Translations under genes and position numbers: made by a program
The notes under the pieces: generated by a model
What the model saw: the letters and a program-made list of their open reading frames with translations, nothing else
Databases searched by the model: none
What the model was told of the DNA's origin: nothing
Shown: positions 24,979 through 63,693 of the stretch, one piece after another
Numbering within the stretch: the stretch's first letter is position 1
Layout of the letters: each line of letters begins with the position of its first letter
Source: a virus
Strand: one strand, 5' to 3'
IMG/VR virus record: IMGVR_UViG_3300017765_000001
Coordinates: 32,001 to 96,000 of that record
DNA: 64,000 nucleotides

Positions 24979-25221
24979 CGTTCCTTCAGTCGTTTGCGTC
25001 CCATCTACACTCAGAAGTATAGTCCTGAATGGTTTCAATTAATTCTAACTTCCACTCTGCTTTCAGATTCTCATGCTTTTGGATCCTAAGGACCATAGCA
25101 TCAGCATCTGAACATGTAATGGTTGATGAAAGAAAAAATTCAAACATGGGATGAACGCTCCGTTCCGCGACTTACTTGCGTCCTGAGACTGAATTTTACT
25201 TCTGACTCTTGGATGAACGAT
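24979..25221 (-). ncRNA. Double glnA-type glutamine riboswitch
   Basis: CGUUCA-UCC..GGA-CGCAAGUA-AGUCG-CGGAACG followed by CGUUCA-UCCCAU..AUGGGA-CGCAAA-CGACU-GAAGGAACG; matches the glnA three-way junction/E-loop consensus as I recall it. Confidence 0.8.
24986..25147 (-). CDS. 53-aa ORF embedded in the second riboswitch aptamer (absent from the ORF track)
   Basis: MFEFFLSSTITCSDADAMVLRIQKHENLKAEWKLELIETIQDYTSECRWDAND*; GGAG 10 nt upstream. Confidence 0.6.
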   Translation of the reverse strand: MFEFFLSSTITCSDADAMVLRIQKHENLKAEWKLELIETIQDYTSECRWDAND

Positions 25222-31827: not shown

Positions 31828-31915
31828 GTGCGGGGAACACTAGGAAAAATATTCCAACTCTACCCTCCAGAGTTGGTATGAGAGACGTTTTTTACTTCCC
31901 TAGAGGTCTCGGTTT
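31828..31915 (-). ncRNA. PhotoRC-II-like structured psbA leader
   Basis: GAGAC/GUCUC stem; CUAGGGAA/UUCCUAG pseudoknot pairing; CCAACUCU-GGAGGGU-AGAGUUGG hairpin. Confidence 0.7.
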
Positions 31916-31959
31916 AAGGGGAAGAGTAAAAAGGTGAGGAAACCCCCACCACTTCCACT

Positions 31960-31993: not shown

Positions 31994-32017
31994 GCACTTT
32001 GGACACTTTGAAAATTG

Positions 32018-61659: not shown

Positions 61660-61732
61660 TAGGGGTTGTGAGGATCGAACTCACCTTAGGCAAATTATGA
61701 GTTTGCTGCATTCACCAGATTGCTAAACCCCC
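61660..61732 (-). tRNA. tRNA with CAT anticodon (Met or lysidine-type Ile2)
   Basis: Cloverleaf; GCAAA-CTCATAA-TTTGC anticodon arm; GTTCGA. Confidence 0.85.
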
Positions 61733-61736
61733 AAGG

Positions 61737-61808
61737 TAGGACTGCTGGGACTTGAACCCAGATCACTCCGTTATAAGCAGAGGGCCTTTACCTTTAGGCG
61801 ACAGTCCC
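61737..61808 (-). tRNA. tRNA-Ile(TAT)
   Basis: Anticodon loop CTTATAA; GGTTCAA T-loop. Confidence 0.85.
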
Positions 61809-62447
61809 TTGTACCTGCTTCCAATCATTCTCAAAGATTTCCATTCCTTTATCAGTAAGGATATGATCATACATTTGCTCAAACACTTTTGGTGGCATAG
61901 TGCAAATGTGAGCACCATTATAGTATGATCTTACAACTCTTTGAACATTTCTGATTGAAGCAGATAGGACTTGAGTTTCAATTCCTTGAACTCTATAGAG
62001 GTCTGATATAGATCTAACGACCTCCAGTCCTGCTACTGATTGATCATCCAGTCTACCCACAAAAGGAGAGACATAAGTTGCTCCTGCCTTTGCTGCCAGA
62101 ATTGCTTGTGCTGCACAGAAAACAAGTGTAACATTGGTCTTGATACCTCTGTCTGCCAGATTTTTACATGCCAAGAGACCATCTCTCGTGCATGGGACTT
62201 TAATTGTTGAGCAATATCCAAACTTGTCATCAAGTCTGATGCCTTCATCAGTCATCTCTTGTGCATCACCCATGACTTCCATGCTGATATCTTCAATTCC
62301 TATCTCATCTATCTCTGCATAGACATCTTGAGGATCTCTACCACTCTTCCTAATCAGTGTGGGGTTTGTTGTCACACCATCAATCAATCCAGTCTGGAAA
62401 TACTTTCTGATGACTTCTGTGTCTGCTGTATCAAGAAAAATTTTCAT
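61794..62447 (-). CDS. talC: Transaldolase
   Basis: IFLDTAD; GVTTNPTL; IKVP; YVSPFVGRLDD; ASIR. Confidence 0.95.
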   Translation of the reverse strand: MKIFLDTADTEVIRKYFQTGLIDGVTTNPTLIRKSGRDPQDVYAEIDEIGIEDISMEVMGDAQEMTDEGIRLDDKFGYCSTIKVPCTRDGLLACKNLADRGIKTNVTLVFCAAQAILAAKAGATYVSPFVGRLDDQSVAGLEVVRSISDLYRVQGIETQVLSASIRNVQRVVRSYYNGAHICTMPPKVFEQMYDHILTDKGMEIFENDWKQVQGTVA

Positions 62448-62617
62448 GTTCCTTCGTTATTGTTATCTCTGTACATTTTAAGTATTTCATCATCAGCAGG
62501 CATCATGACTGCTGCATGTCCATCATCATTCACTATGCCAAGGTGTTCACCTTTTTCAACTCTCTCCATTAATTCATCCCATTTATCCTGAAATTCTTTG
62601 ACTGTGAAAATTTCCAT
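62444..62617 (-). CDS. Phd/YefM antitoxin-like small protein (57 aa; absent from the ORF track)
   Basis: MEIFTVKEFQDKWDELMERVEKGEHLGIVNDDGHAAVMMPADD... Confidence 0.55.
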   Translation of the reverse strand: MEIFTVKEFQDKWDELMERVEKGEHLGIVNDDGHAAVMMPADDEILKMYRDNNNEGT

Positions 62618-62644
62618 TGCACATAGGTTTTGATTATATAGGCA

Positions 62645-62718
62645 TCGAGGTGACAGGATTCGAACCTGCGACCCCTGCTTCCCAAAAGCAGTGCTCTACC
62701 AAACTGAGCTACACCTCG
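62645..62718 (-). tRNA. tRNA-Pro(TGG)
   Basis: Cloverleaf; loop TTTGGGA. Confidence 0.92.
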
Positions 62719-62723
62719 ATGAG

Positions 62724-62810
62724 CGGAGAGGGTGGGATTCGAACCCACGTTGCCCTTGCAGACAAGCTGGTTTTCAAGACCAGAGCCATAAACCACTCGA
62801 CCACCTCTCC
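62724..62810 (-). tRNA. tRNA-Ser(TGA)
   Basis: Loop CTTGAAA; long variable arm. Confidence 0.92.
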
Positions 62811-63059
62811 TTATCTCTCTTCAAAGTCAAGTCTTCTGACTTTCCTTTGACGTCTTGCCTCCTGAAAGGCAAGGTCTTCATTTGATAGAACTCCTTTTCT
62901 TTTTTTAGGATTGTTAGATTTTACCATAACAATCTTACTTAGGTCAACTGCAGTCACCTTATCATCAACCACTGTCATCATATTGGGACATCCACAGGAT
63001 TGAGATTTGGTGGAGCTCGTGATTTCTTTTCTGCATACTTTACATCTTACTGTAATCAT
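62811..63059 (-). CDS. Small Cys-rich (putative Zn-binding) protein
   Basis: CKVC...CGC. Confidence 0.6.
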   Translation of the reverse strand: MITVRCKVCRKEITSSTKSQSCGCPNMMTVVDDKVTAVDLSKIVMVKSNNPKKRKGVLSNEDLAFQEARRQRKVRRLDFEER

Positions 63060-63079
63060 TGGTTTAGTTGGATACTACA

Positions 63080-63151
63080 TGGGAGATACAAGGATCGAAC
63101 TTGTGACATCCTCGGTGTAAACGAGATGCTCTACCGCTGAGCTAATCTCCC
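63080..63151 (-). tRNA. tRNA-Val(TAC)
   Basis: Loop TTTACAC. Confidence 0.92.
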
Positions 63152-63154
63152 ATA

Positions 63155-63227
63155 CTCCTCCACCTGGACTCGAACCAGGGACAAGGTGATTAACAGTCAC
63201 CTGCTCTACCAACTGAGCTATAGAGGA
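63155..63227 (-). tRNA. tRNA-Asn(GTT)
   Basis: Loop CTGTTAA. Confidence 0.92.
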
Positions 63228-63434
63228 TTATTCTAAGACACTAGTTTCTTGTTTCTTCAATCTAAAATACATCTTATAGTATTTCTTTTTGATTCCATCA
63301 AGAGTTTCCTTATCATCACCAAACCCCATCCAATTACAGAGTTGTGCTGATCCTTCCAATTCACTAATCAGTCTCAATATATTGACTGACTGAATAGGAA
63401 GACCTCCTGGTTGATAATCTTCAATTGGGTTCAT
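63228..63434 (-). CDS. Hypothetical protein (start MNPIEDY)
   Basis: ORF between tRNA-Gly and tRNA-Asn. Confidence 0.5.
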   Translation of the reverse strand: MNPIEDYQPGGLPIQSVNILRLISELEGSAQLCNWMGFGDDKETLDGIKKKYYKMYFRLKKQETSVLE

Positions 63435-63452
63435 AATACTCCAGTAGGAGGA

Positions 63453-63524
63453 AGCGAGTAAGGGGACTTGAACCCCTGACATTCAGCTTGGAAGGCTGAC
63501 GTTCTACCACTGAACTACACTCGC
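63453..63524 (-). tRNA. tRNA-Gly(TCC)
   Basis: Loop CTTCCAA. Confidence 0.92.
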
Positions 63525-63543
63525 ATTGTGGGAATAAATCCCA

Positions 63544-63615
63544 AGCCAGATAACAGATTTGAACTGATGACCTTTGCTTTACAAAAGCACTGCTCTACCA
63601 CTGAGCTAATCTGGC
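63544..63615 (-). tRNA. tRNA-Thr(TGT)
   Basis: Loop TTTGTAA. Confidence 0.92.
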
Positions 63616-63619
63616 AAGG

Positions 63620-63693
63620 CGACTCAAGTAGGATTCGAACCTACGACCGACTGCTTAGAAGGCAGTTGCTCTGTCCAGCTGAGCTATTGAGTC
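63620..63693 (-). tRNA. tRNA-Arg(TCT)
   Basis: CTGC-CTTCTAA-GCAG anticodon arm. Confidence 0.92.

Follow-up and report, generated by a model that had tools for sequence, protein, structure and literature searches.

A putative glutamine-I-type riboswitch in a cyanophage, with a small gene enclosed by a helix of one of its two interlocked cores

The element described here lies in a 64,000-nucleotide stretch of viral DNA (the window; positions 32,001 to 96,000 of IMG/VR record IMGVR_UViG_3300017765_000001). This record is a 110-kb fragment from a T4-like cyanomyovirus and is ~56% complete. Rfam and tRNA annotation of the window places a PhotoRC-II RNA (31841-31937, minus strand, 78 bits) and an array of nine tRNA genes (61660-63693, minus strand) in the same stretch, and ThyX- and SpeD-like open reading frames (ORFs) were recognised there by eye.

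The locus comprises a promoter, a leader element assembled from two glnA-type (glutamine-I) half-sets, a small gene lying within that element, and further small genes downstream. In the order of transcription, its features are the following.

25256-25228, minus strand: sigma-70-type promoter (TTGACT 25256-25251, 17-nt spacer, TATAAT 25233-25228; 11/12 consensus)
25219-25215, minus strand: 5' strand of the outer P1, CGUUC-A, invariant in 79/79 sequences
the A between CGUUC-A and UCC, minus strand: J1/2 of the outer core, a canonical junction
25213-25181, minus strand: P2(1) hairpin of the outer core (UCC 25213-25211, GGA 25183-25181, 27-nt loop)
25180-25173, minus strand: outer junction J2/3, CGCAAGUA, with the AGUA half of the E-loop; invariant, matching the RF01739 consensus CGGAAGUA with one substitution
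25172-25168, minus strand: 5' strand of P3, AGUCG, common to both cores and complementary to 24992-24988
25165-25153, minus strand: inner P1 hairpin, GAACG-GAG-CGUUC (GAACG 25165-25161, GAG 25160-25158, CGUUC-B 25157-25153)
25151-25146, minus strand: 5' strand of P2(2), UCCCAU, including the AU of the start codon (AUG 25147-25145)
25147-24986, minus strand: embedded gene, 53 aa, phrog_504 (E 1.4e-22, full length)
25004-24999, minus strand: 3' strand of P2(2), AUGGGA, 141 nt downstream of its partner strand
24998-24993, minus strand: inner junction J2/3, CGCAAA (CGCA[A/C]A in 200 parsed loci, CGCA being required by the pattern)
24992-24988, minus strand: 3' strand of P3, CGACU, whose final U also begins the ORF's UGA (24988-24986)
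24987-24984, minus strand: GAAG, the E-loop strand and J3/1 of the outer core, overlapped by the ORF's UGA
24983-24979, minus strand: 3' strand of the outer P1, GAACG-B, invariant; GAAG and GAACG-B match the RF01739 consensus GAAGGAACG
24989-24952, minus strand: expression platform (CUGAA 24989-24985 with UUCAG 24959-24955, enclosing a small hairpin)
24945-24781, minus strand: downstream gene, 54 aa, phrog_545 (E 4e-29), with two YRG motifs
24773-24678, minus strand: 31-aa hydrophobic ORF behind GAGG (MGALQLTAVTTLACFATMSLWYGEILLLKKI), in the element's transcription unit
24667-24512, minus strand: 51-aa phrog_6192 protein with a YRG motif and a weak DUF4278 tail (12.6 bits), in the same unit
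24513-24492, minus strand: terminator-like hairpin and T-run

A preliminary description, made from the sequence alone, had placed two glnA-type half-sets on the minus strand at 25221-24979, and they are present at those positions. The complementarity that it reported between AGUCG of unit 1 and CGACU of unit 2 is there as well, as are the AUG in the 5' strand of P2(2), the UGA within CGACUGA, the GGAG in the inter-aptamer linker, and the two sides of the outer E-loop (AGUA in the CGCAAGUA junction and GAA in the GAAG strand). The long loop closed by UCCCAU and AUGGGA, given there as ~140 nt, measures 141 nt and holds the 53-codon ORF. Between AGUCG and the GAACG of the inner hairpin lies CG, and a single A separates CGUUC-B from UCCCAU. 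The GAG triloop of the inner hairpin, together with the preceding G, forms a GGAG that stands 10 nt before the ORF's AUG.

The predicted transcript start (~25221) falls immediately upstream of CGUUC-A, the first strand of the outer P1, and in ORF-less relatives a promoter is also found directly upstream of the nearby 5' half. The terminator-like hairpin probably ends a transcription unit of ~730 nt. A second promoter (TTGACT 24505, TATAAT 24477; 11/12 consensus) overlaps this hairpin and serves the next small gene, and a DUF7219 protein (E 1.9e-22) is encoded in the neighbourhood at 24143-23886 (minus strand). Directly upstream of the element's own promoter lies the gene for a thioredoxin/glutaredoxin-like phrog_22 protein (25564-25292, minus strand).

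Relatives of the region were found by blastn in 418 cyanophage records, where the nested ORF is labelled a hypothetical protein, and the element also occurs in hundreds of metagenomic contigs. Two pattern scans of IMG/VR returned at least 120 matches each, which were parsed to 200 unique loci among the matches listed; a 27-nt stretch of the central junction was matched exactly in at least 120 IMG/VR contigs. The search patterns held constant the central junction, from the 3' half of the first unit to the 5' half of the second, and the parsing expression likewise demanded CGCA; three relatives outside that expression have CGAAAA as the inner J2/3. The half-sets that were free to vary in the sample are invariant across the 200 unique cyanophage loci parsed. 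An alignment of 79 sequences, used for half-set invariance and helix covariation, gives the same picture: the flanking half-sets, which no pattern had fixed, do not vary, and the ORF body between them varies, with indels in multiples of three. Given the recurrence of the region in 418 records and at least 120 contigs, and the invariance of the half-sets around a varying ORF body, the region is not a chance arrangement. Among the matches listed, the second core holds a gene in 127 of the 200 parsed loci, like that of the window; the other 73 are compact, with a 10-21-nt hairpin as the second P2 and an entire element of ~95 nt. No further copy of the element was found in the 110-kb phage record (~56% complete). 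A stricter junction pattern was absent from 401 sampled cyanobacterial genomes, a result that speaks for this sample and does not imply absence elsewhere, and a scan of genome contigs with a 14-base pattern gave only random matches in unrelated bacteria, none with the extended motif, which has no bearing on hosts.

Is the enclosed reading frame a gene? The preliminary description had put a 53-codon ORF inside the loop closed by P2 of unit 2, and GGAG into the inter-aptamer linker, and the coding check upholds the ORF: the frame is intact in 126 of the 127 loci listed, and dN/dS is ~0.36 (0.36 over 1618 pairs in the 53-57-aa group; 0.24-0.42 for forms of 58 aa and longer). The frame runs from an AUG (or UUG) beside P2(2) to a fixed UGA or UAA, or to a UAG in the same frame, one codon ahead of GAC. 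Every linker is 3 nt long. It reads GAG, and hence completes GGAG, in all 127 ORF-bearing loci listed; among the 73 ORF-less loci listed it reads GAG in just one and otherwise GAA, GAU, GUA, GGA or GCA. This Shine-Dalgarno (SD)-like motif thus tracks the presence of a gene to translate. The nested protein ends in WDAND, encoded by the 3' half of the aptamer, and its C12, E35 and C47 are invariant. An AlphaFold model shows a two-helix hairpin (pLDDT 83) that has no significant neighbour in the PDB (best E-value, 3.9), and no Pfam match was found for the protein. Judged by its frame and substitution pattern, the nested ORF is a real gene. We had considered that the ORF groups (53-56, 59-65 and 66 aa) might be unrelated, an idea that was dropped in view of their common hydrophobic N terminus and two Cys residues ~35 residues apart; as far as the sequences tell, the three groups are probably one divergent family.

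The relatives carry genes in other places, too. In 52 unique relatives among the matches listed, the outer P2 also encloses a gene, here of ~66 codons (62-70), and the 5' half of the first core (CGUUCAUC[C/U]nAUG) lies ~200 nt upstream, right after a promoter; a TATAAT-like box stands no more than 45 nt upstream of this far 5' half in 43 of the 52. The P2(1) gene has a hydrophobic N terminus and two Cys residues (~66-aa consensus, M.SILLALTLAHH..PYGWHMSCERFLQRR...KSKVEGQC....), its stop codon abuts GACGCAAGUA, and its AUG often pairs with a CAU preceding its stop. Examples are found in cyanophage S-IOM18 (L004, 197-397), in L152, L183 and L073, and in 48 other loci. All four layouts occur: neither core holds a gene, the second alone does (as in the window), the first alone does, or both do.

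Downstream of the second core, CUGAA of the expression platform consists of the last two bases of P3 and the GAA of the E-loop strand, and its pairing with UUCAG competes with P3 and GAAG. UUCAG in turn overlaps the SD AGGAG (24956-24952) of the downstream DUF4278-like gene. In the 79 sequences, 95.2% of the cells of this alternative helix are paired, compared with 26-67% when the strands are slid, and its middle pair is GC in 35, AU in 23, GU in 15 and another combination in 3; the 5' base of this pair doubles as position 2 of the stop codon (UGA or UAA) that ends the nested gene. The preliminary description had included neither this covarying helix to the downstream SD nor the genes in P2(1) nor the compact form. 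The downstream 54-aa protein scores 15.8 bits against DUF4278, below the cut-off of 25.3; we predict that the gene is DUF4278-like and regulated by the element.

The preliminary description had proposed covariation in two helices, UCCCAU/AUGGGA and AGUCG/CGACU, as a check. Across the gene, pair 4 of P2(2) is C-G in 99, U-A in 22 and U.G in 5 of the 127 loci listed, with a single mismatch; pairs 1-3 are invariant, and pair 5 is A-U in 102 of the 127. In the 79-sequence alignment, 96.3% of P2(2) cells are paired, compared with 27-46% when the partner is slid, and the covariation score was reached by none of 500 shuffles, with double-sided changes at only one pair. The U-A state occurs mostly within one ORF lineage, so independent compensatory events are few, and the need to encode Trp-Asp constrains the AUGGGA strand as well. 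In the compact, ORF-less class, P2(2) covaries at five positions and P2(1) covaries fully as well; the P2(1) hairpins of relatives covary freely (UCCC/GGGA, UCAGAG/CUCUGA, UCUC/GAGA and UCACC/GGUGA). Over the ~200 nt that separate the strands in the 52 relatives with a P2(1) gene, pair 3 of P2(1) is C-G in 30, U-A in 19 and U.G in 3, with no mismatch, and its 3' base lies in the stop codon, which is UAG with C and UAA with U. The other of the two helices, AGUCG/CGACU, is nearly invariant in the ORF class, where two G.U variants occur (AU 78 and GU 1, GC 78 and GU 1, in the 79-sequence alignment). Compared by class, P3 is AGUCG/CGACU in gene-bearing loci and GGACGG/CCGCCC in compact ones, where G.U variants occur and the helix contains an A.C or A.A mismatch, so that the evidence for P3 totals one covarying pair and a matched length change. 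P1 is invariant and hence carries no covariation information.

The glnA assignment of the preliminary description held for a relative and fell short of the Rfam threshold for the window itself. The glnA covariance model gave no match at the gathering score on the window; with relaxed thresholds, unit 1 alone was detected (18.0 bits, E 0.37, RF01739; gathering cut-off, 35). The ORF-less relative L181 reaches 38.5 bits against RF01739, in an alignment that pairs its first CGUUC with its last GAACG and accommodates a 52-nt insert within P3; for other relatives the scores are 29-34 bits. The window remains below the threshold because of its 27-nt and ~175-nt inserts. When the RF01739 junctions are followed one by one (P1, A, P2 with UCC/GGA, J2/3, P3, GAAG), all elements of the outer core appear in order with one substitution, CGCAAGUA for CGGAAGUA, which places C instead of G in J2/3; this G-to-C change is fixed in all phage copies. 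Against the glutamine-II model RF01704, unit 1 scores 14.0 bits (cut-off, 33) and relatives 23-29 bits, and the window has no P2 hairpin presenting GGAACGG for a pseudoknot. Nor does the element look like a pseudo-cooperative tandem: its cores are 3 nt apart, have P3 in common and use one platform, and the ORF lies inside the second core. On the strength of these junctions and helices, the element is a descendant of the glutamine-I (glnA type) riboswitch and would work like one, with glutamine as the presumed ligand. The inner core, in which the E-loop is missing and J2/3 is shortened, may be unable to bind ligand.

In total, these observations are consistent with a structure of two glnA-type cores that have P3 in common, as first read from the sequence, and in this architecture we have high confidence. 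We propose that the outer core would consist of P1 (CGUUC-A/GAACG-B), the P2(1) hairpin and P3 (AGUCG/CGACU), joined by the junctions A, CGCAAGUA and GAAG, and that P3 would enclose a circularly permuted inner three-way junction made of the local P1 hairpin, A, P2(2) and CGCAAA. The preliminary description had offered this nested fold alongside a kissing tandem pair, and it is the nested fold that the junction geometry and the Rfam register of L181 support better. In the side-by-side alternative, CGUUC-A would pair with GAACG-A, CGUUC-B would pair with GAACG-B across the gene, and AGUCG/CGACU would form a pseudoknot between the units; the result would be a cooperative pair, in which the gene within P2 and the regulatory logic are unchanged. 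The four P1 strands match, so both pairings are possible, unit 1 alone is aligned by Rfam at 18-34 bits across the window and relatives, and tandem glutamine riboswitches are common (157 doublets; PMC9481103). However, only with nesting do CGCAAGUA and GAAG share one end of P3, as in the canonical CGGAAGUA-[P3]-GAAG; side by side, the J2/3 (AGUA) and J3/1 of a unit would sit at opposite ends of P3, unlike the canonical junction in which AGUA faces GAA, and unit 1 would be without GAAG and unit 2 without GUA. The linker is, moreover, always exactly 3 nt and its hairpin forms in the MFE fold, and the sole Rfam alignment above threshold, that of L181, is in the nested register. Nearest-neighbour energies are -72.2 kcal/mol for the enforced nested fold and -69.6 kcal/mol for the side-by-side one, whose kissing helix cannot be scored. 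Covariation cannot separate the two topologies because the outer P1, the inner P1 and most of P3 never vary, and no natural P1-strand variants that would do so were found in the relatives. Pairing of P1 strands between units is physically possible, as in a glutamine-II RNA crystal CGUUC and GGAACG are exchanged between two copies (PMC7357161). We regard the side-by-side fold as unlikely, if worth keeping in mind, give the nested fold roughly three times its chance, and infer that the topology is nested rather than kissing. The whole reading, in which a small operon under an early promoter carries at its 5' end a glutamine-I riboswitch with one core inside the other, is the one toward which we lean.

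How might such an RNA work? We posit that without glutamine, the 3' strand of the aptamer (CUGAA of CGACUGAAG) would pair with UUCAG beside the SD, keeping the DUF4278-like gene off, while the nested GGAG and AUG would be within reach, and ribosomes translating the nested gene would prevent P2(2), P3 and the outer P1 from forming. Glutamine would lock both cores, enclose the start region of the nested gene within the inner junction and free the downstream SD. The net effect would be a toggle, with the nested gene expressed at low glutamine and the downstream gene at high glutamine. The MFE fold (-84.4 kcal/mol) contains the inner P1 hairpin, P2(2) and the alternative helix and lacks P3 and the outer P1; the enforced nested fold is 12 kcal/mol worse. 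The alternative helix in the MFE fold fits the published view of glutamine riboswitches as translational ON switches whose ligand-bound form probably competes with a fold that blocks the ribosome-binding site (PMC6212724, PMC6698751). L-Glutamine is the candidate ligand, and glutamine sensing and translation of the nested gene probably compete on one RNA. For the toggle itself, we see the chances as evenly balanced. More tentative still, and in our judgment a little short of even, is the reading in which a ligand-binding fold encloses a translated gene such that ribosome traffic and glutamine binding are mutually exclusive, setting the nested two-Cys protein against the downstream IF17-like one; as part of the same reading and at the same strength, two nested genes in relatives, one per core, may be governed likewise.

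It could instead be that the long-range helices are idle in vivo, the gene having been inserted into an ancestral tandem switch of which local pieces alone now act. GAACG-GAG-CGUUC would then be a translation operator, the 3' half and the alternative helix a constitutive or protein-controlled mask of the SD, and the remaining conservation a product of coding or other constraints. Translation of the ORF would indeed usually hold the strands apart, the MFE fold is not the nested one, a single long-range pair covaries in the ORF class, and the 3' half overlaps the WDAND codons. Yet the nucleotide invariance of both 3' halves and CGUUCAUCC goes far beyond what coding needs, the 5' half is non-coding, and the body of the ORF has a dS of ~1.1. 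Divergent ORF lineages and the early in-frame UAG variant keep the RNA frame, the P2 pair beside the start and stop codons covaries in both P2(2) and P2(1), two positions independent of each other, and neither half has been lost in any of the 127 loci listed. Taken together, we find the idle-helix explanation improbable. Smaller still is the probability that we give to a ligand other than L-glutamine, or to a protein as the bound partner, with CGCAAGUA and CGCAAA in place of CGGAAGUA re-specifying the pocket. The sub-threshold Rfam score of the window, the J2/3 change fixed in all phage copies and the inner core without its E-loop would all fit a changed specificity, but CGCA is the consensus at the equivalent site of the validated glutamine-II class in the alignment, an ORF-less relative passes the RF01739 threshold with CGCAAGUA in place, and the downstream genes are YRG/DUF4278-like, as with known glutamine switches (PMC6212724). 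Nested cores that respond to glutamine remain our preferred reading.

The closest known system is the glutamine-I riboswitch (RF01739; the Synechocystis gifB/IF17 leader, PMC6212724), with which the element has in common P1, A, P2, J2/3 (..AAGUA), P3 and the GAAG E-loop strand, as well as its position in the leader ahead of a small gene that has YRG motifs and is predicted to be DUF4278-like, and a likely translational ON mode via release of a masked SD. It differs in that P3 here encloses a permuted core instead of a hairpin, that one P2 loop is 141 nt long and contains nearly all of a translated gene, and that J2/3 has C instead of G; it is also phage encoded, and the window's copy is invisible to Rfam at threshold. 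Tandem glutamine riboswitches (157 doublets, 4 triplets; PMC9481103, PMC2864571) likewise place two cores before one gene. These are described as complete and sequential, whereas the cores in the window lie 3 nt apart, have P3 in common and are each without a P3 hairpin of their own. The glutamine-II class (RF01704, the Downstream-peptide motif; PMC6698751) likewise has CGUUCA..CC/GG..CGCA, with CGUUC pairing to a GGAACGG strand, and its domain-swapped dimer, with exchange of CGUUC and GGAACG, resembles the proposed P1 pairing between units; in contrast, the window scores 14 bits, has no P2 hairpin with GGAACG in its loop, and possesses the class I AGUA/GAA E-loop. A published survey counted two glutamine aptamers in cyanophages (PMC5473149), and the tandem survey dropped overlapping hits and arrangements with an intervening ORF by design (PMC9481103); the count of just two is low because ORF-split or overlapping hits are discarded (PMC9481103, PMC5473149).

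A working fold of the proposed kind would be the first known case of direct competition between a ligand-sensing fold and translation of a gene that it encloses. Riboswitch aptamers are treated as compact non-coding leaders. In RNA phages, long-distance pairings also cross translated ORFs: in the coat-replicase interaction of MS2, a helix spans a translated region and ribosome traffic controls a distant start, with no ligand-sensing aptamer. The preliminary description knew of no report of the present arrangement, and the full-text literature that we searched, which did not extend to Ames and Breaker 2011 (tandem glnA), gave neither a nested core nor a gene within an aptamer helix; this suggests that the nested-gene layout has not previously been described in that literature. 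Were the proposal true, it would provide a simple physical means for two genes to respond oppositely to one metabolite, and early gene expression in cyanophages would be tied to the nitrogen status of the host via glutamine. It also offers a regulatory context for two abundant unannotated families, phrog_504 and phrog_545.

The region around the downstream start has peculiarities of its own. GUUCAU of either 5' half (25218-25213 and 25156-25151) is complementary to AUGAAC (24945-24940), the start and second codon of the downstream gene, and this pairing is present in the MFE fold. AUGAAC is common in the gene-bearing class and absent from the compact class, where the gene starts with AUGGCU or AUGUCU. 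An extra conserved insert, composed of AACGGAUCC, a small GAAA/GNRA-type hairpin and GAGAAGGUUAAUUUUCACCC, lies between GGAACGGG and the SD in cyanophage S-SM1 (L003, ~610-660), in L146, L151, L026 and L097, and in others; it may be another structured module.
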